In this document: piece by piece, positions 3,789 through 45,041 of the stretch | Layout: each line of letters begins with the position of its first letter | Numbering within the stretch: position 1 is the first letter of the stretch | Origin: a virus | Lineage: Duplodnaviria; Heunggongvirae; Uroviricota; Caudoviricetes | Length of the DNA: 45,041 nucleotides | IMG/VR virus record: IMGVR_UViG_2802429245_000013 | Strand: one strand, 5' to 3' | Notes under the pieces: generated by a model | Database searches by the model: none | Told to the model about the DNA's origin: nothing | Seen by the model: the letters and a program-made list of their open reading frames with translations, nothing else | Position numbers and translations under genes: made by a program

Positions 3789-4358
3789 ATGACAATACAA
3801 TTAATCCCCGTTTTCAACGGAACTATCTCAAACGAAACCGCCCTACTCTGTAATGCTCGTGATCTGCACGCTTTTCTTGGTGTAGGTAAGGTTTTCGCTG
3901 CCTGGATTACATCCCGCATCGCAGAATACGGATTTACAGAAAATCAAGATTACATTTTGCTTTCCAAAACAGGAAAGCAATCGTTAGGAGGCAGAGGAGG
4001 ACATAACCGCAAGGACTACCACCTCACCCTAGACACTGCCAAAGAGCTGGCAATGGTCGAGCGCAACGAAAAAGGACGCCAGATCCGCCGATACTTCATC
4101 GAGTGCGAGAAGAAGCTGCGCGAAGATACCACCAGCACACAATCCCCTCTGAATGTTGACATCATCATGCGCGTCAGAAACGGCTCGGTTACCCACATTG
4201 AGCACCACAAATCAGGCTCAGTTATCACCACAGAATGGGCAATTCACTTACTACGCAAAAGTGGATGGATTGTCATGCCACGCGATGAACTTCTTAACAC
4301 GCCACTGGCCCAACTGATGCCCGAAAATTTGACTCAAACCGGAACCTGCGTCCGGTAA
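3789..4358 (+). CDS. AntA/AntB-type phage antirepressor-like protein, 189 aa
   Basis: ORF track; N-terminal region ...ALLCNARDLHAFLGVGKVFAAWITSRIAEYGFTENQDYILL... resembles AntA antirepressor domain; opposite strand to surrounding tail genes; RBS GAGG 5 nt before ATG. Confidence 0.55.
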   Translation: MTIQLIPVFNGTISNETALLCNARDLHAFLGVGKVFAAWITSRIAEYGFTENQDYILLSKTGKQSLGGRGGHNRKDYHLTLDTAKELAMVERNEKGRQIRRYFIECEKKLREDTTSTQSPLNVDIIMRVRNGSVTHIEHHKSGSVITTEWAIHLLRKSGWIVMPRDELLNTPLAQLMPENLTQTGTCVR

Positions 4359-4681
4359 CTGGTCCCATTAAAAAACACAACATCAATGTTATAGGTGGGG
4401 TTCTCTGCCCCATCTACCTTTGAAATTGCCAGCGATGCAAAATACCCGGCAAACTGTTGCTGAACCATGTTCACATAGTAGTCCGGGTAAATTTGCTGCA
4501 CGATGCACTGCTGCGCTGGAATGCCGTAATTCGCGTAAAACGGCGACTCCCCCAACCCCAGCTTTAACGTCTGAATGAGCGTCGTCAGCCAGCCGTAGGA
4601 GAAATCACCGCTGGCGTCTGACTCTACTGCAACCCATTTTTTGTTGCCGTTCGCGTCGGTGACGCGGCCCCATGTTCTCAT
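4334..4681 (-). CDS. Phage tail/baseplate protein, 115 aa (occupies gp25/W-like wedge position)
   Basis: ORF track; size and position between spike (V-like) and J-like genes; sequence itself not recognisably gp25-like to me. Confidence 0.4.
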   Translation of the reverse strand: MRTWGRVTDANGNKKWVAVESDASGDFSYGWLTTLIQTLKLGLGESPFYANYGIPAQQCIVQQIYPDYYVNMVQQQFAGYFASLAISKVDGAENPTYNIDVVFFNGTSYRTQVPV

Positions 4682-4685
4682 GCGT

Positions 4686-4849
4686 CAACCTTTCAAGTAA
4701 ATTAGGGTACCGGTAACCAGAGCGGTGCAAATGATCCACGCTACTGGAGTCAGAATATGCCGAATCCCCCGACATACTGCGATTATTCTCGCAGCCTTAT
4801 CAGCCCCTTGTGGGGTTGTCTCAGCCTTAAGAATCAGTTCGCTATCCAT
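4686..4849 (-). CDS. Small membrane protein, 54 aa, C-terminal TM segment
   Basis: Hand-found ORF below track cutoff: MDSELILKAETTPQGADKAARIIAVCRGIRHILTPVAWIICTALVTGTLIYLKG; RBS AAAGG 6 nt before ATG; stop 5 nt before next gene start. Confidence 0.35.
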
Positions 4850-5009
4850 TTAGAACCTTTATGATCTCTGCGATTCCCGGAAGCGATTTAGCAACTGCAA
4901 ACCCTCCGATAACTATAAGAACTGCATAAAACATTCTTCTCAGAACCGGACTTCTTTCGAGCAATTTTAGAGCTTCCACAATCCAGTCTCCTCCGCTAAA
5001 ATTAATCAC
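4842..5009 (-). CDS. Small membrane protein, 55 aa, central TM segment, GTG start
   Basis: Hand-found ORF: VINFSGGDWIVEALKLLERSPVLRRMFYAVLIVIGGFAVAKSLPGIAEIIKVLNG; RBS GGAGG 6 nt before GTG; stop overlaps downstream ATG (ATGGATAG). Confidence 0.35.
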   Translation of the reverse strand: MINFSGGDWIVEALKLLERSPVLRRMFYAVLIVIGGFAVAKSLPGIAEIIKVLNG

Positions 5010-5064
5010 GGAAGACCTCCAAACATACGTAATTATCCCTTGCCTTATTCAAGGTCAGAAACAG

Positions 5065-5096
5065 AAAGCCCCGACTGTTTGCCCAGTCGGGGCTTT
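5065..5096 (-). terminator. Terminator-like hairpin just downstream of V-like gene
   Basis: Perfect 13-bp stem AAAGCCCCGACTG / CAGTCGGGGCTTT; on minus strand followed by CTGTTTCT (weak U-tract). Confidence 0.4.
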
Positions 5097-5134
5097 CGCT
5101 TTATGGATAGAATTTAAAGTGAAATGAACCGGTA

Positions 5135-5848
5135 TTAACCCGGATTTGGTTTCTTTGACGTGATCGTGCTGTTGCCGCTTTGAACCCCAGTCACATCGTG
5201 GCTGTGACCGCTGGCGCTGACACCTTTTATCATCGCGTCGTTTTGCACAGTAAGCGGGCCAATCAGCGAAGCAGTTGTATCCTTCATCTGGGCTTTGTCC
5301 TGGACGATCGGTCCGTTGAGGTGAATTTGACCGTTCATGAAGATATCTTCGGCCTCGAGGTAAACAGCTTTCGACTTTAGCCTGATTTCTTCCGGTGCCA
5401 CCGTTACCGAGCTACTGCCGTCCTCTGTTTTGAGGATCGCGCCATCCGGACCGTACAAAACGATTTTTTGCGGATCTTCGTCGGACCAGTCCTTGTTTGC
5501 CAGTGGCACGAAAAACAGTGGAGTGAGCGACATCGAGTAAGAAAGCGTCGCCATACCGGTTCCCAATCCGGACACACCGCGCAGGGATACATCAGCGGCA
5601 ATTGTTACTCCTCGATCGCCCGGCTGTATCGGGTAACGAATATACGGGAATGTGGCGACAGGGATTGTTATCTGCGGAAAGTTGATCCCCTCCGGCAGCA
5701 TATCAAACTGAACTGTCACTATCTGCCCGCTGACACCGACAACATGGCAGGGCAATTCACGGCCTTTAAGCTCGGCTTGCTGGTTGCCGGAAAAGGACAC
5801 CATTTCCGAAAAGCGTTGGAGAGGTAGTCGTTTTTGAGCGTTTGACAT
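5135..5848 (-). CDS. Baseplate spike / assembly protein V-like, 237 aa
   Basis: ORF track; position after hub gene; Gly/Ser-rich C-terminus typical of spike proteins. Confidence 0.5.
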   Translation of the reverse strand: MSNAQKRLPLQRFSEMVSFSGNQQAELKGRELPCHVVGVSGQIVTVQFDMLPEGINFPQITIPVATFPYIRYPIQPGDRGVTIAADVSLRGVSGLGTGMATLSYSMSLTPLFFVPLANKDWSDEDPQKIVLYGPDGAILKTEDGSSSVTVAPEEIRLKSKAVYLEAEDIFMNGQIHLNGPIVQDKAQMKDTTASLIGPLTVQNDAMIKGVSASGHSHDVTGVQSGNSTITSKKPNPG

Positions 5849-6855
5849 TACACCCTCACCCAGTTTTCAGCATACGCCTCGAACACTGTCACCCATGCAT
5901 CACCATCGGCCGTCAGATACGAGCCAATGTGTCTGACAGATTTAACCATAAATTTTCCGGTAAACGTGGTCGAGTTTTTGGAGATAACGCTAGGAGCCAT
6001 TGTATTAGCCATCACAATCGACGCTGCACCTGAATATAGCCCCTCCGGTAGTTTAACCACATCACCACATCTGATATCACCTCTCATTGGGCATTTGAAA
6101 CTGACAGTAAACGGCTCAATCCAAGTCGGCTGTCCAACCAGTTCATGGGCATGAATTGTTTTAGGTTCTCCCCACTTTGCCGACACGTTATCGTAAATTC
6201 GTATTCTGTCGGAAAGAATGCTGATGGCTATTCCGCTATATTTCGCATCACGCATCATCGCTATGGATGCGTTTTTTACGACCATCGCTAACGAGCCAAT
6301 ATTCTTATAGGACGCAGCCCATCTCTCAGGTAAAACAAGGCTGTCATTGACCAGACATTCAATCTTTTTTTTAGGAAAAGCTTCTTTCAGTGCACGTGCG
6401 ATAACATCCCCTACTTTCTCACCAGCTTCACCTTTACCCTCGATTGAGAAAGGGCTTCCATCTTCTTTTTTTCTGAGCGTTGGATTAATAACCAGATTCA
6501 ACGTCTGGTTGGTGCCAATCCAGTTAGCATAAGCCAGATAGACTTCACCGTAGATGATTTCCCCCTGCTGCTCAGGGTTGGCCAGAGGCAATCCTTCTGA
6601 AAACCCACCCCGCATTCTTACAATACACCCTTGCAAGTTAACGCTCTGTTTAAGCATATCGAGCGGTAAACCATATATCGCAAGCATGGTTCCCGAGTTC
6701 ACCACATCAAGTCCAGTCACCTGCACGTCAAATTCAATATGTAACCCACACCCGGGTGTTTTACTGGTATCAAAAGGCCCGATAGGTTTACCGTTGCAAT
6801 CCACTGGCGGCTTGCCTGTTTTAGGATTGATGATTTCCAGTCGGTAATAGCGCAT
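5848..6855 (-). CDS. Baseplate hub protein (Mu P / late control D-like position), 335 aa
   Basis: ORF track; start overlaps upstream stop; contractile-tail gene order. Confidence 0.45.
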   Translation of the reverse strand: MRYYRLEIINPKTGKPPVDCNGKPIGPFDTSKTPGCGLHIEFDVQVTGLDVVNSGTMLAIYGLPLDMLKQSVNLQGCIVRMRGGFSEGLPLANPEQQGEIIYGEVYLAYANWIGTNQTLNLVINPTLRKKEDGSPFSIEGKGEAGEKVGDVIARALKEAFPKKKIECLVNDSLVLPERWAASYKNIGSLAMVVKNASIAMMRDAKYSGIAISILSDRIRIYDNVSAKWGEPKTIHAHELVGQPTWIEPFTVSFKCPMRGDIRCGDVVKLPEGLYSGAASIVMANTMAPSVISKNSTTFTGKFMVKSVRHIGSYLTADGDAWVTVFEAYAENWVRV

Positions 6856-36946: not shown

Positions 36947-37366
36947 TCCATTTATTGGATTAATTCAATATTCTCGCTGTAGGGGTATAGCCGAGGCCAC
37001 CAAAGCCCGGAGGTGGTGAAATAAAACCGGGCACAACACGAAGGCGCATTTCCGATATCCATAAAGAGTCGGTCTTGTCTGTTAAATTTAAATGGTGGGA
37101 ATGCGCCTCCGGTTGTGAATAACAACACCGCTGTGTGTAGTCTTGGTGGCATCAGTTTTTTCTTGAAGTTCGACTGATGTCCGCCCTTTTTAAAGTGAAT
37201 TTTGTGATGCGGTGAATGCGGCTAAGCGCACGCGGCACAGTTAAAAGTCATGTTAGTCCTTATTGGTTTGGGTGGGAAAGCCGACTGTAATTGTTAACTG
37301 GTTGCAGTCACCTGGAGGCACCAGGCACCGCATCAACAAAGTTCATTTGTAAAAATGGAGATAATT

Positions 37367-37588
37367 ATGATTGCACATCACTTCGGAACTGATGAAATAC
37401 CACGTCAGTGTGTGACTCCTGGTGATTATGTTCTTCATGAAGGCCGGACATATATCGCCTCGGCAAACAATATTAAAAAGCGAAAACTTTATATTCGTAA
37501 CCTGACTACAAAAACATGCATTTCTGACTGCATGATTAAAGTCTTCCTCGGTCGTGATGGTTTACCTGTAAAGGCGGAGTCATGGTGA
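37367..37588 (+). CDS. kilR: KilR, prophage-encoded cell division (FtsZ) inhibitor, 73 aa
   Basis: Translation [49 protein letters not shown]... recognised as Rac KilR; RBS GGAG. Confidence 0.8.
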
Positions 37589-37758
37589 TGACTAAGAAAA
37601 TAAAATGTGCTTACCACCTTTGCAATAAAGAAATTGAAGAAAGCAAAAGTATTAAAAGACCTCTTCATTTCATGCGTGGAGTTATCCCAATGACGGAAAT
37701 GAAAAAATATTGTAGTGAAAGTTGTGCCGAAAAAGACCAGATGGCACACGAACTTTAA
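37588..37758 (+). CDS. ydaE: YdaE-like zinc-binding small protein, 56 aa
   Basis: Hand-found [59 protein letters not shown]; ATG overlaps kilR stop (TGATG). Confidence 0.65.
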   Translation: MTKKIKCAYHLCNKEIEESKSIKRPLHFMRGVIPMTEMKKYCSESCAEKDQMAHEL

Positions 37759-37832
37759 TTAACTGACTATTCGAAACTGAATTTATGCCAGCAATGGCAG
37801 GGATTCGCTCAACCTTAATTAAGGAGAAAAAC

Positions 37833-38108
37833 ATGATTACCAATTATGAAGCCACTGTTGTAACGACCGATGACATTGTTCACGAGGTTAATCTGGAAGG
37901 AAAGCGTATTGGCTACGTGATTAAAACAGAAAATAAAGAAACCCCATTCACTGTGGTTGATATCGACGGTCCATCAGGCAACGTAAAAACACTTGATGAA
38001 GGTGTCACAAAAATGTGCCTGGTTCACATCGGAAAGAATCTGCCCGCAGAAAAAAAAGCCGGATTTCTGGCAACTCTGATTGCAATGAAATTAGGCGGTG
38101 AAATCTGA
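37833..38108 (+). CDS. racC: RacC, 91 aa
   Basis: ORF 37785..38108 trimmed to MITNYEATVVTTDDIVHEVNLEGKRIGYVIKTENKETPF... with RBS AAGGAG. Confidence 0.7.
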   Translation: MITNYEATVVTTDDIVHEVNLEGKRIGYVIKTENKETPFTVVDIDGPSGNVKTLDEGVTKMCLVHIGKNLPAEKKAGFLATLIAMKLGGEI

Positions 38109-38209
38109 AAGAAATAGCCTGCGCCATACGCAGGCTATGAACAGTGTGTATCCGGCAAGATCATTCACTGAACAAAACGAATTTTAATCTGAGTTGAGGT
38201 TAAAAAACA

Positions 38210-41200
38210 ATGAGCACAAAACCACTCTTCCTGTTACGGAAAGCGAAAAAATCATCCGGTGAACCTGACGTCGTCCTGTGGGCAAGCGACGATTTTGAAT
38301 CGACCTGTGCCACTCTGGACTACCTGCTCGTTAAGTCAGGTAAAAAACTGAGCAACTATTTTAAAGCTGTTGCCACAAATTTTCCTGTCGTTAATGACCT
38401 TCCCCCTGAAGGTGAGATCGATTTTACCTGGAGTGAACGCTATCAACTCAACAAAGACTCCATGACCTGGGAACTAAAACCGGGAGCAGCGCCAGACGAC
38501 GTTCACCATCAGGAGGATGCACCGGAAACCGAAGAACCGACGGGAGGCCAGGAAGAAAACGCGCAGGCAGACGCCCACGAGGATTGCCAGGATTGCGAAG
38601 TCTCTGTAGCCACTTTGCGGTTCACACAGCGTCTTCTGCACATTTTTACGTATGCAGCCGGGGATCGAAAATACCTGCATCATGCCACCCGTGAACAACG
38701 CAAACACATTACTGCTCTTGAGATGGATCAGGAAAACAGCTATGTCCAGAATCTGCTGTTGGCCATACGCAGCATGGCAGAACCGACAACTCTGGATAAT
38801 GCCGCCCTGCTCCGCCTGACTGATGCAATTAAGGCAGTGTTCTCTATCACGAAAAAACATCAGCCCTATGAATTTAAGAATTTCATTTCAGCCTGGCTGG
38901 ATACCGAACACATTGATCGCGGTCTTCTGACAAAAGAATGGCGAAAAGGGAATCGTGTTTCACGCATCACTCGCACGGCTTCCGGTGCTAATGCTGGCGG
39001 CGGGAACCTCACCGATCGCGGCGAAGGTTTCGTCCACGATCTGACGTCACTGGCGCGCGATGTAGCCACTGGCGTACTGGCCCGTTCAATGGACGTGGAC
39101 ATCTATAACCTTCATCCGGCACACGCTAAACGCATTGAGGAAATTATCGCTGAAAATAAACCGCCCTTTTCTGTTTTCCGCGACAAATTCATCACCATGC
39201 CTGGCGGGCTGGATTATTCCCGCGCCATCGTGGTTGCGTCCGTGAAAGAAGCACCAATTGGGATCGAGGTCATCCCCGCACACGTCACTGAATATCTGAA
39301 CAAAGTACTGACTGAAACCGATCATGCCAACCCTGATCCGGAAATCGTGGATATTGCCTGCGGTCGCTCCTCGGCCCCGATGCCGCAGCGAGTAACAGAA
39401 GAAGGAAAACAGGACGATGAAGAAAAACCACAACCATCTGGCGCAATGGCAGATGAACAGGCAACGGCTGAAACAGTGGAACCGAATGCAACTGAACATC
39501 ATCAGAACACGCAGCCGCTGGATGCTCAGTCACAGGTAAATTCTGTTGATGCGAAATATCAGGAACTGCGGGCAGAACTCCATGAAGCCCGGAAAAACAT
39601 TCCATCAAAAAATCCTGTCGATGCCGATAAATTGCTTGCTGCATCACGTGGTGAATTTGTTGACGGAATTAGCGACCCGAACGATCCGAAATGGGTTAAG
39701 GGGATCCAGACTCGCGATTCTGTGTACCAGAACCAGCCAGAAACGGAAAAAATCAGCCCGGATGCGAAACAACCTGAGCCAGTAGTGCAACAGGAACCGG
39801 AAATAGTCTGCAATGCCTGCGGTCAGACTGGCGGGGATAACTGCCCTGACTGTGGTGCGGTGATGGGCGACGCAACGTATCAGAAAACCTTTAATGAAGA
39901 AAATCAGAATGAATATCAGGAAAAAGGTCTGGAGGAAATGGAAGGCGCTGAACATCCGCACAATGAGAATGCTGGCAGCGATCCGCATCGCGATTGCAGT
40001 GATGAAACTGGCGAAGCGTCAGCTCCTGTAGCAACTGAAATCATGTGGCCGTCATATTTCGAGCCAGGCCGCTATGAAAACCTCCCGAACGAGGTTTATC
40101 ACTCCGCCAACGGAATAAGCAGCACGATGCTGAAGGATGCCCGTATCAGCCTGATGTATTACCACGGGAGGCACATTGCCGGAACTATTCCGAACGAGGA
40201 AAGTGATGCACTGCTGCGTGGGCGGATCATTCACAGCTATGTTCTGGAAACGGATAAATTCGCTGATGAATATGCCATTCCGGTACCGGTTCCTGAATAT
40301 GTGGTTACTACTTCTAACGAACTGATCGCCATCATTAAAAAACACAATGCCAGTCTGCCAGCACTGATGACACCAGAGCAGATGAAAGAGTGGATCGAAA
40401 GCTACAACAGCACTCTTATACAGCCACTGTCTGTAAGTGCTGGGGCCGAAGAAACAGGCATCCTTTACGGTTCACTTCCGGTGGAATTTCGGCGTATTCC
40501 TGAGGGGGAAAAACACACAGCATCAGCAATGAAAGCCTGTATTAAAGAATACAACGCAAGCCTCCCTCCTCTGTTGAAAACCAGTGGAGCACGGGAGCAG
40601 CTTCTGGATCAAATTGAAACTGTAGACCCAGAACTGGCAAAAAAAGAACGTGCTAAATCGTTGCCTTACAACATCAGTGGCACAAAAGAGCAATTAACCG
40701 AAATCGCACGGAAAATTCGCCCGGAACTGGTGACACTGGAGGACTGGCAAAAACGCCAGCAAGAAGAAAACGCCGGGAAAACGTTTATCAGTCCGGATAT
40801 GTATGAACAGGCAAAAAATATTCACGCGGCACTGCAAAACAATACCGATGCAGCAAGGCTACTCAACCACCCGGATCGCAAATCTGAAATCAGCTATTTC
40901 GGGTTTGATGAAGAAACCGGGCTGGAAATCAGGGTCCGCCCTGATATCGAAATCCGGCTGCCATACGAAAGCATTTGCGCTGACGTGAAGTCAGTCAGCC
41001 TCGGTTATGTGCGGCAGGAACGACTTAAAGATCGCCTGCACCTTGAAATTATTGAGCGTGATTATCACCTCAGCGCCGCAATGTATTGCGATGTGGCAAA
41101 CCTGGACAAATTTTTCTGGATCTTCGTCAACAAAGATGTTGGCTATCACTGGGTGGCAGTCGTGGAAGCCTCGCAGGAACTCCTGGAGCTTGGTCGACAG

Positions 41201-41335
41201 GAATATCGCCGGACGCTACGCCAGATAAACGAAGCCCTAGAGACAAACAACTGGCCAGCACCTATTACCGAAAGTTACACCGACGAATTAAACGACTTTG
41301 ATCTTCGTCGTCTTGAAGCACTGCATCTGGCTTAA
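38210..41335 (+). CDS. recE: RecE-like exonuclease VIII, 1041 aa, with C-terminal PD-(D/E)XK (YqaJ/lambda-exo-type) nuclease domain
   Basis: N-terminus [26 protein letters not shown]... and central ...[30 protein letters not shown]... recognised as RecE; C-terminal ...RPDIEIRL...ADVKS... nuclease-like. Confidence 0.75.
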
Positions 41336-42438
41336 TGGAGAACCTGACCATGCAAAATACCAATATCATCACGACAGAGCAGACACCAAATACCATTTCT
41401 GCCAGTAACACTATTTTTAACGTTCAGGCGTTGACGCAACTTCAGGAAGTAGCCGGGTTGATGTCACAGGCCACCGTCACAGTTCCCGATCACCTTCGCG
41501 GAAAACCTGCCGACTGCATGGCAATTATCATGCAAGCCATGCAATGGGGCATGAACCCCTACGCTGTGGCTCAGAAAACACACCTGGTAAACGGAGTTCT
41601 GGGTTATGAAGCACAACTGGTTAACGCTGTGATCTCTAGCTCAAGTGCAATTGTAGGCCGCTTCCATTACAAGTACGAGGGAGACTGGGAGAAATGCTCT
41701 CGCACCCGAGTGGAGACCGTTAAGAAAACGGCCAAAGGAGGCGGAATCTATGAGAAAAAAGAAACGATCCCATGTTGGACCAGTGAAGATGAGTATGGTC
41801 TATCAGTTCGAGTGGGTGCAGTTCTTCGCAGTGAAAGTGAGATTACCTGGGGAGAACCGGTGTTTCTTTCCAGCGTGATTACGCGTAATTCTCCTTTATG
41901 GACCTCAAACCCGAAACAACAGCTCGCCTATCTGGCGTTGAAATACTGGGCTCGCCTTTATTGTCCTGACGTCATCCTGGGCGTGTATACCCCCGACGAA
42001 CTGGAAGAGCCACAGGAAAAAATCATCAATCCTGTGCCGGTACAGAATTATAGCGAGGTAAGCGAGCAGCGAACAGAAACCATCGAACAGCGTATTGACG
42101 AAGCGTGGATTGATGAATTCCGGCAGCGCGTCGAAAGCGCGGCCACGACTGAGGAAACCACTGCATTACGCCAAGAGATAGAGGATCAGAAAAACCAGAT
42201 CGGCGAATTCTTTGCCGAGCTTAAAGGAAAAGTGGTTCGGCGCCATCACCGTCTCAATGCTATTGCCAGTATCGAGAAGATGATAAATGACCTGCCTTCA
42301 TCAGGTGATCCAGAAGCAGAACAAAAATTTACTGCTCTGGAAAATACGCTGAATGCTGCACGACCACATCTGGGTGAATTATATGAGGCGTATAAAACGA
42401 CACTGACAGATATAAAACCAGAATATATCAGCTCCTAA
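41335..42438 (+). CDS. RecT/Redbeta-type single-strand annealing protein, 367 aa
   Basis: Immediately downstream of recE with overlapping stop/start (TAATG); recombinase partner position; N-terminus does not match the K-12 RecT sequence as I remember it. Confidence 0.55.
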   Translation: MENLTMQNTNIITTEQTPNTISASNTIFNVQALTQLQEVAGLMSQATVTVPDHLRGKPADCMAIIMQAMQWGMNPYAVAQKTHLVNGVLGYEAQLVNAVISSSSAIVGRFHYKYEGDWEKCSRTRVETVKKTAKGGGIYEKKETIPCWTSEDEYGLSVRVGAVLRSESEITWGEPVFLSSVITRNSPLWTSNPKQQLAYLALKYWARLYCPDVILGVYTPDELEEPQEKIINPVPVQNYSEVSEQRTETIEQRIDEAWIDEFRQRVESAATTEETTALRQEIEDQKNQIGEFFAELKGKVVRRHHRLNAIASIEKMINDLPSSGDPEAEQKFTALENTLNAARPHLGELYEAYKTTLTDIKPEYISS

Positions 42439-42501
42439 TATTGACTTTGGCGGTGTAGCCTCACCGCCATCACAAAATTTTATTATATGAGAGAAAAGAC
42501 A

Positions 42502-42696
42502 ATGCGGTATGAAAAAGTCAAACCATGTCCGTTTTGTGGTTGTCCATCAGTAACGGTGAAAGCCATTTCAGGATATTACCGCGCAAAGTGTAACGGATGC
42601 GAATCCCGAACCGGTTATGGTGGAAGTGAAAAAGAAGCACTCGAAAGATGGAATAAACGAACCACTGGAAATAATAATGGAGGTGTTCATGTATAA
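42502..42696 (+). CDS. ralR: RalR (Lar) restriction-alleviation protein / type I toxin, 64 aa
   Basis: Translation MRYEKVKPCPFCGCPSVTVKAISGYYRAKCNGCESRTGYGGSEKEALERWNKRTTGNNNGGVHV recognised as RalR. Confidence 0.8.
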   Translation: MRYEKVKPCPFCGCPSVTVKAISGYYRAKCNGCESRTGYGGSEKEALERWNKRTTGNNNGGVHV

Positions 42697-42877
42697 AATT
42701 ACCGCCACTATTGAAAAGGAAGGTGGCACTCCTACTAACTGGACAAGATATTCAAAATCTAAACTAACGAAATCAGAATGCGAAAAAATGCTCTCAGGGA
42801 AAAAAGAAGCAGGCGTTTCCAGAGAGCAGAAAGCAAAACTGATAAATTTTAATTGCGAGAAACTTCTGTCATCGTGA
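42689..42877 (+). CDS. ydaC: YdaC-like protein, 62 aa
   Basis: ORF 42617..42877 trimmed to MYKITATIEKEGGTPTNWTRYSK... with RBS GGAGG 5 nt upstream; overlaps ralR end. Confidence 0.55.
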   Translation: MYKITATIEKEGGTPTNWTRYSKSKLTKSECEKMLSGKKEAGVSREQKAKLINFNCEKLLSS

Positions 42878-42983
42878 GTTGCATTATATCCAAACTAGAA
42901 CTTCATAGGTGATTATTAAAAATCAACCACGCCCGCCAGTATTCTGTATATTTACTGGCGGTCATATCGTAAGAGGTATGGCA

Positions 42984-44354: not shown

Positions 44355-44472
44355 AAAAAAGACCGGAATACAGAAATTCGAGTAAATTTCGGGGGATTTC
44401 GGGGAGATGCTTGCAACTAATTGATTTTAAATACAATTAAAAAGAGACCGAATACGATTCCTGTATTCGGTC
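44355..44472. repeat. att-region repeats: three copies of GACCGAATAC(A/G) (one inverted, forming a 10-bp-stem palindrome) plus tandem TTTCGGGG(G/A)
   Basis: 44361-44373 gaccggaatacag; 44446-44472 gaccgaatacgattcctgtattcggtc; 44386-44406 atttcgggggatttcggggag. Confidence 0.4.
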
Positions 44473-44616
44473 CAGGGAAATGGCTCTTGGGAGAGAGCCG
44501 TGCGCTAAAAGTTGGCATTAATGCAGGCTTAGTTGCCTTGCCTTTTAAGAATAGATGACGACGCCAGGTTTTCCAGTCCGCGCGTAAAGTGGTCAGAAAA
44601 AAAGCGCGTTTATCAT

Positions 44617-44699: not shown

Positions 44700-45041
44700 T
44701 TAACAGAGTCTCTCAGCTCTTTCAATAAACGGTGCCAGACTCACTTTTTCACCTGGTTTATTGGGATCATCAATCTGGATCACCGAAATGGGCTGGGCTT
44801 TAGTCTTCCCGCTGGCTACTTCCTTTTGTGCGATATCGTTTAAAGGATACTGTACCAGGGTACTTGGGTTAATGACATACAAAGCATTGCCCGGACGACA
44901 GGTCAGCATCACCTCTTCGCGATTAAACGCCCATTTGTCTTTACCCATTTCAAAACGGCTGACGGTAATCACCTGCGGAGCCGCCAACGCCGCTGCCGAA
45001 CTGGTGAGTAACAGAAACGCCAGAATACTTTTTTTCATCAT
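44700..45041 (-). CDS. Host small secreted protein with signal peptide, 113 aa (possibly YebY/DUF2511-like)
   Basis: ORF track; signal peptide [22 protein letters not shown]; lies outside prophage beyond the int-proximal att region; family name is recollection only. Confidence 0.45.

Follow-up and report, generated by a model that had tools for sequence, protein, structure and literature searches.

The recET genes of the Salmonella Gifsy prophages, when derepressed, suppress the recombination defects of recB mutants (PMC3121763). Lambdoid Rec modules are known to be shuffled; a recent survey of them explicitly left the 'shuffling of partner interaction domains' unanalysed (PMC12315714). The C-terminal domain (CTD) of Redβ binds λ Exo, and partner specificity is established for RecE/RecT versus λ Exo/Redβ; whether a CTD also mediates exonuclease binding in annealases of the RecT type was described as unknown in a 2023 review (PMC11611040). 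Here we describe the recE-like and recT-like genes of a 45,041-nucleotide stretch of viral DNA (IMG/VR record IMGVR_UViG_2802429245_000013, hereafter the window). We put at roughly 85% the reading that they form the recombination module in the early-left region of a lambdoid prophage resembling Rac, in which largely K-12-like N-terminal and central parts of RecE are joined to a nuclease-annealase cassette of 2.4 kb that functions as proposed below and is of the type carried by Gifsy-1/-2 and numerous further prophages of Enterobacterales. Gifsy/EHAP1-type RecET cassettes in Rac-like prophages are a known and already annotated kind, and module exchange is well established; the added value of this locus is modest, and lies in an exact domain-boundary junction and a comparative match between the annealase CTD and the nuclease type.

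Mosaic recE and the cassette junctions

Set against K-12 Rac, the recE gene of the window alternates between near-identity and no recognisable relation. The RecE proteins are ~95% identical at amino acids (aa) 1-100 and 236-602 (BLASTP), parts whose DNA is 94-95% identical to K-12 Rac (blastn), whereas window aa 101-235 gave no useful alignment to K-12 RecE in BLASTP. Across the region, blastn found K-12 homology at 36972-38511, 38915-40030 and 42448-42927, and no DNA similarity to K-12 Rac at 38512-38914 and 40031-42447. Window RecE is not collinear with K-12 RecE at high identity over its length, aa 101-235 and 603-1041 being unalignable in DNA.

The junctions of the cassette are sharp. Base by base, K-12 identity is perfect through 40016 (codon E602, equivalent to K-12 E585) and collapses from 40017; this left junction falls in an acidic linker, ~17 aa before the crystallised K-12 nuclease domain, which starts near K-12 residue 602. 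At the right junction (42447/42448) K-12 homology resumes with a conserved GC-rich hairpin, 10 nucleotides (nt) past the recT stop (Table 1). The non-homologous block is exactly the nuclease domain plus the annealase gene, 2.4 kb in the window and 1.64 kb in K-12. An initial annotation of the locus had held that the N-terminal and central RecE regions match K-12, that the C-terminal nuclease and the annealase do not, and had suggested from this an exchange of modules inside the recombination operon. Pairwise alignment with K-12 RecE and RecT, a check that it proposed, found no end-to-end identity; the unlikeness of nuclease and annealase to K-12 is borne out, and the two junctions bear out the exchange and define its unit. 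The match of the remainder to K-12 stands for aa 1-100 and 236-602 and fails for aa 101-235, a second divergent patch that had gone unmentioned.

Sliding-window identities among seven RecE proteins divide recE into at least four segments whose alleles differ in history, namely aa 1-100, aa 101-235, aa 236-600 and the nuclease domain. The first is 87-95% identical to K-12 in protein and just 22-40% identical to U90, S163-2 and N8B7-2; the second aligns with Gifsy-2 RecE and is 97-100% identical to its counterparts in Rac-SA53 and pPE4. In turn, E. coli prophages that share just 25-40% identity in the N-terminal half of RecE reach 97-100% in the nuclease domain. This patchwork is in line with the shuffling known for lambdoid Rec modules and, because its central part is the K-12 allele, window recE is by sequence comparison a chimera of the K-12 and Gifsy lineages. 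The central segment also carries a zinc-ribbon-like motif at 39806-39853 (RecE aa 533-548), conserved with K-12, for which the Pfam match was sub-threshold only.

The same alignments bear on the direction of the exchange. It may have run the other way, with the long nuclease and the CTD-bearing annealase ancestral in full-length RecE and the short nuclease and classical RecT of K-12 swapped in, so that the window would hold the original state there. We give this slightly less than even odds: Gifsy-2 RecE is collinear with window RecE over its entire length, window aa 101-235 resemble Gifsy and not K-12, and, of the 80 Enterobacterales species sampled below, the majority have the long nuclease joined to N-terminal regions of Exonuc_VIII-like sequence, against which the K-12 cassette is ~9 times commoner in E. 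coli (1728 complete genomes, compared with 196 of 5426 for the window cassette, 32 of them full length). Either direction yields the same present-day structure and function.

The nuclease-annealase cassette of the window recurs in close relatives. It is 98.8% identical in phage Rac-SA53 (KU052037; megablast) and 98.8-99.7% identical across Rac-SA53 and RefSeq E. coli prophages such as U90, and in Rac-SA53 and E. coli genomes it is annotated as 'recE: exodeoxyribonuclease VIII' with 'recT / RecT family recombinase'. Nuclease and annealase types were matched in each E. coli row listed, for both the window and the K-12 cassettes. With an in-frame junction at a domain linker, and nuclease domain and annealase moved together, the locus amounts to a clean natural experiment, joint transfer being what exonuclease-annealase partner specificity predicts. 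A record labelled 'Actinobacillus phage vB_Apl-pPE4' (PP818812) has an early region (kil, recE, recT) with ~92% DNA identity to the window; Actinobacillus pleuropneumoniae as its host looks doubtful.

The predicted nuclease and its annealase partner

RecE of the window opens with an Exonuc_VIII match (PF06630, aa 2-182, profile positions 1-203, E = 2.9e-66) and ends in a DUF3799 (PDDEXK) match that Pfam reports in two stretches, one of them aa 853-1017. The full protein scores 1381.2 bits against NCBIfam NF007259, above the cut-off of 1269, compared with 1830 for K-12 RecE. Within the nuclease domain, BLASTP identity to K-12 is just 29% over 133 aa near the catalytic motif. Residues H676, D912, D925 and K927 nevertheless align with K-12 H652, D748, D759 and K761, and are invariant or nearly so in 15 family members (H75, D312, D325 and K327 in the numbering of alignment A1).

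The K-12 RecE structure 3H4R is the sole sequence relative of the nuclease domain in the PDB (E = 2.8e-7) and also the top Foldseek match of an AlphaFold2 (AF2) model of the domain (E = 6.7e-7, probability 1.00, template-modelling score 0.52 when target-normalised), at moderate core confidence; the predicted local distance difference test (pLDDT) of this model averages 67.6, with 65-78 in the core and the first 63 residues unmodelled. Cas4, MGME1 and λ exonuclease follow in the match list, the λ Exo structures weakly (E 0.04-0.2). On alignment and model together, the C-terminal domain is predicted to be a RecE-type PD-(D/E)XK nuclease, of a family marked by a toroidal tetramer and processive 5'-to-3' double-stranded DNA exonuclease activity.

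What makes the domain long is a helical insertion without a K-12 RecE counterpart, which AF2 models as all-helical (pLDDT 80-91). It is built of helix-linker-helix repeat units that hhalign relates to one another, with probabilities of 97% for R1 and R2 (E = 4e-11) and 93% for R2 and R3. Pfam searches at permissive thresholds with the insertion, the annealase CTD and both the variable and the central recE segments returned sub-threshold noise only. A SAP/HeH DNA-binding likeness of the repeats was considered and is unproven speculation, the match to Ish1 (HeH-like) reaching only E = 0.089.

The annealase carries a PF03837 (RecT) match at aa 41-227 (profile positions 2-191, E = 5.6e-36, 124.4 bits against a cut-off of 24), and K-12 RecT covers the same span of that profile. 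This Pfam profile is the sole link between the two: BLASTP found no similarity of the window annealase to K-12 RecT, hhalign of the annealase family with K-12 RecT gave 0.1% probability, which is not significant, and the NCBIfam RecT models NF007351 and TIGR00616, to which K-12 RecT scores 464 and 416 bits, did not match. Nor did the Bet model TIGR01913; the window pair and λ Red (Exo/Bet) are of the same superfamilies and different families. PDB sequence and family-profile searches with the annealase gave no matches. In its AF2 model a β-rich core, with a fold of the Redβ/RecT/Rad52-like kind, is followed by a disordered linker and then by a helical CTD. The annealase belongs to a distinct subfamily inside the RecT family, not outside it. 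Its relatives at ~60% identity (59-64%) go by the names 'enterohemolysin' or 'RecT family recombinase' in databases including NCBI and UniRef, and from these names we take it to be probably EHAP1-like ('enterohemolysin'). The RecT/Redβ superfamily is described as having an EHAP1-like subgroup, which occurs in E. coli and Salmonella (PMC8093625, citing Iyer et al. 2002).

Both open reading frames (ORFs) are intact. The recE stop and the first recT ATG share one base (TAATG), which the initial annotation had read as coupling by overlap. A second ATG at 41350 (MQNTNI...) is more likely the true start, since a GGAG motif stands 9 nt upstream and the same methionine begins Gifsy-2 RecT and, as called by the Prokaryotic Genome Annotation Pipeline, recT of strain U90 (99.7% identical); recE and recT would then be separated by 14 nt, without overlap. 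The shared base is real, and the overlap of the genes probably not. As for other parts of that annotation, the PD-(D/E)XK-like pattern was recovered in the aligned catalytic residues and the fold match to 3H4R, the suggested comparison with λ families separated the pair from Bet and left λ Exo as a weak fold match, and the annealase is non-canonical in matching no NCBIfam RecT model while still being of the RecT family.

Selection appears to act on both partners: against related E. coli alleles, the ratio of nonsynonymous to synonymous substitution (dN/dS) is 0.08-0.16 in the nuclease domain, and in the annealase CTD it is 0.11-0.28. Such ratios, together with the intact ORFs, the full set of catalytic residues and the absence of frameshifts in the window copy, make it very improbable that a defective prophage left the pair behind as a decaying remnant without current function, even though Rac-type prophages are often defective and deletion derivatives exist elsewhere (locus L147, with a RecE N-terminus fused to the CTD, and E. 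coli EC6563, with a truncated recE). The same arrangement stands in Rac-SA53, deposited as a complete phage genome, and the window holds a full-length prophage with structural genes.

For a functional module we propose the following sequence of events. The nuclease domain would act as a RecE-type 5'-to-3' double-stranded DNA exonuclease, enlarged by the repeated helical insertion, and would resect a double-strand end; the annealase, as a probably EHAP1-like member of the RecT/Redβ superfamily, would be loaded on the 3' overhang and anneal it to complementary single-stranded DNA. Exonuclease and annealase would have to recognise each other, and because of this need they would be exchanged as a pair, with the annealase CTD as the putative docking part for the long nuclease by analogy with the Redβ CTD on λ Exo. 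The module type has functional evidence behind it, because Gifsy recET genes restore recombination in recB mutants, a genetic result.

The annealase CTD and its pairing with nuclease type

In the AF2 model the CTD helices occupy residues 251-359 (pLDDT 82-88), after the disordered linker. A hidden Markov model (HMM) of the CTD, built from annealase residues 245-362, had no match to K-12 RecT, the annealase of the short nuclease. Scanning one genome per species with the nuclease alignment gave 80 loci in 80 Enterobacterales species, and in all 77 that were informative the gene after the long nuclease encodes a CTD-bearing annealase. The cores of these annealases are EHAP1-like in 72 loci and classical RecT in five. 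The latter hybrids, all downstream of the long nuclease, are Serratia-type loci (L025, L031 at 5296-6411, L043, L082 and L084); their core shares 31% identity with K-12 RecT (E = 4e-26) and has a Pfam RecT match at 3e-37, and their CTD matches at E ~1e-19. The modules of two of them, labelled 'Sphingomonas sp. NPDC019816' (L025) and 'Streptomyces sp. NPDC002677' (L082), are near-identical to Serratia loci and are probably assembly contamination.

A second scan, in which the CTD alignment was run against viral contigs, yielded 80 loci, 77 of which have an EHAP1 core with a long nuclease upstream. One of the others (L153; IMGVR_UViG_3300011855_000048, 4086-5330) has the CTD fused to a third core, again downstream of a long nuclease: the N-terminal 280 aa of this protein in the annealase slot are phrog_3657, a family of 'unknown function' with no Pfam match and no sequence relative in the PDB. 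The family has ~7800 homologues, 60-70% identical among those listed (from Enterobacterales, Aeromonas, Marinobacterium and others) and called hypothetical where a source names them; it may be an unannotated family of single-strand annealing proteins, found here through its place in the annealase slot. The remaining two viral loci (L147 and L151) are deletion remnants. At L147:3840-5264 an in-frame deletion joins the Exonuc_VIII domain of the RecE N-terminus straight to the annealase CTD; in E. coli EC6563 (L008:2207-5069) a truncated recE runs into a shortened recT.

The CTD follows the nuclease type and not the annealing core, since the 77 informative loci and L153 keep it across core types. 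By analogy with Redβ on λ Exo, this suggests that the CTD docks the annealase on the long nuclease. We would tentatively go further, at slightly short of an even bet, and regard the CTD as a portable docking adaptor by which EHAP1-like, classical RecT and phrog_3657 cores could be plugged into the same long RecE-type nuclease, with the insertion of the nuclease as a docking platform or an extra DNA-binding element; on that view phrog_3657 would be a family of single-strand annealing proteins that had gone unrecognised. The insertion as the docking site for the CTD was considered separately and is unsupported, in that nucleases without most of it keep CTD-bearing partners.

It is unlikely, in our judgement, that the CTD serves instead in host single-stranded DNA-binding protein (SSB) binding, oligomerisation or regulation, and accompanies the long nuclease through linkage and replacement of a middle segment within conserved flanks. 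The Redβ CTD does bind SSB as well, through an overlapping surface (PMC11611040), the E. coli annealase alleles differ in a patch between more similar flanking DNA, and the CTD is retained by the partners of nucleases lacking most of the insertion. Linkage of this kind has to contend, however, with a CTD that is kept at just 30-45% identity on three sequence-unrelated cores, always beside a long nuclease, and whose HMM does not match the partner of the short nuclease; moreover the host SSB in E. coli is the same for both cassettes, and SSB binding alone therefore fails to explain a type-specific association. The two E. coli annealase alleles were also tried as evidence of CTD conservation and are weak for that purpose, their CTD DNA being 82% identical while the nuclease domain reaches 98%, a pattern that a simple recombination patch would account for.

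Several points weigh against the overall reading of the module proposed here. The nuclease model is just moderate overall and lacks its first 63 residues, the annealase model had no match in the PDB by Foldseek, and neither sequence nor profile gives the annealase a direct tie to K-12 RecT or an annealase of solved structure. The link between CTD and nuclease is a comparative one, drawn from sequences; the five classical-RecT hybrids are close relatives and probably record one evolutionary event; family members without most of the insertion still pair with CTD-bearing annealases; and homologous replacement of a middle segment would also leave both flanks conserved. If the docking-adaptor reading is true, it would answer for RecE/RecT the question that the 2023 review raised about annealases other than Redβ. 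As a putative specificity element, the CTD could guide the design of recombineering pairs, being moved to match core and nuclease, and full-length RecE variants may find use in linear-linear cloning.

Prophage context and comparison with known systems

The module is part of a tightly packed operon in the order kilR, ydaE, a racC-like gene, recE, recT, ralR, xis and int. Directly downstream of the cassette, the window retains the toxin-antitoxin pair RalR/RalA known from K-12 Rac, the antitoxin RNA lying antisense beside ralR. Because the host RyeA/SdsR pair of small RNAs (sRNAs) lies between the integrase and yebY, the Rac-like prophage of the window is placed at the ryeA/sdsR-yebY site, unlike K-12 Rac, which is at ttcA with IntR. 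Rac-SA53, collinear with window 37033-42927 at 96% DNA identity, likewise uses IntR and sits at ttcA; the integrase of the window prophage is another one, and its neighbour is yebY. U90 departs from the window in the N-terminal half of RecE, where it carries another allele.

Table 1 Features of the recombination module and its surroundings in the window (positions of the whole stretch unless given as aa)
Feature	Position	Strand	Basis or remark
recE-like gene, 1041 aa, exodeoxyribonuclease VIII family, mosaic	38210..41335	+	ORF; Pfam; NCBIfam
recE segment 1 (aa 1-100), K-12-like allele	38210..38511	+	94.8% DNA identity to K-12 Rac
recE segment 2 (aa 101-235), non-K-12, resembles Gifsy-2/Rac-SA53 version	38512..38914	+	no K-12 blastn match
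recE central segment (aa 236-602), K-12-like	38915..40016	+	94.4% DNA identity to K-12; CxxC...CxxC zinc-ribbon-like motif
Replaced C-terminal nuclease domain (aa 603-1041), predicted 'long' RecE-type PD-(D/E)XK	40017..41335	+	without DNA similarity to K-12
Predicted catalytic residues H676 (40235-40237), D912 (40943-40945), D925 (40982-40984), K927 (40988-40990)	40235..40990	+	alignment
Helical insertion (~aa 712-854, ~145 aa) without K-12 RecE counterpart	40343..40771	+	gap in K-12 alignment; splits DUF3799 match
Helix-linker-helix repeat units of the insertion	R1 aa 692-740, R2 aa 760-810, R3 aa 811-850	+	hhalign
recT-like annealase gene	41335..42438	+	367 aa from ATG 41335; 362 aa from likelier ATG 41350
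GGAG Shine-Dalgarno-like motif	41337..41340	+	9 nt 5' of ATG 41350; read from sequence
Annealase CTD, helical, ~110 aa, candidate nuclease-docking module, without K-12 RecT counterpart	42100..42426	+	AF2 and CTD HMM
Conserved GC-rich hairpin (GGCGGTG...CACCGCC), right-hand cassette junction	42449..42468	+	K-12 homology resumes here
ralR	42487-42696	+	neighbour of RalA
RalA antitoxin sRNA (Rfam RF02694)	42695-42873	-	217.7 bits; antisense beside ralR
Prophage integrase, 358 aa	43231-44307	+	
Host sRNA pair RyeA/SdsR	44435-44579	both	Rfam, 175 and 116 bits; between integrase and yebY
yebY	44700-45041	-	

Among described systems, λ Exo/Redβ is likewise a two-component exonuclease-annealase recombinase. 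Its annealase has a DNA-binding core that a flexible linker connects to a helical CTD, the last seen on λ Exo in structure 6M9K. There is no sequence similarity, and λ Exo, a trimer of 226 aa, lacks the N-terminal region of RecE. The window CTD, at ~110 aa, is longer than that of Redβ (~70 aa) and has no fold match to it.

K-12 Rac shares with the window the operon position (kilR-ydaE-racC-recE-recT-ralR), the catalytic residues, the PD-(D/E)XK fold and the coupling of a nuclease gene to a following annealase gene. In contrast to K-12, the nuclease domain of the window is 158 aa longer, with the repeated helical insertion and a different C-terminal tail, and K-12 RecT lacks the 110-aa CTD of the window annealase, with which it has no detectable pairwise similarity.

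Gifsy-1 and Gifsy-2 of Salmonella share with the window the Exonuc_VIII N-terminus, the long nuclease with its insertion and a ~369-aa annealase with a CTD, adjacent and in the same order; Gifsy-2 RecE (of the STM1009/STM1008 pair) runs collinear with window RecE throughout. The Gifsy-1/-2 nuclease domain, insertion included, is 52-55% identical to that of the window and Gifsy-2 RecT is 61% identical to the window annealase over its full length, whereas the N-terminal and central parts of Gifsy-2 RecE are just ~38% identical to the window. In its nuclease with insertion and its annealase with CTD, adjacent and in this order, the window pair is a RecET module of the Gifsy type.

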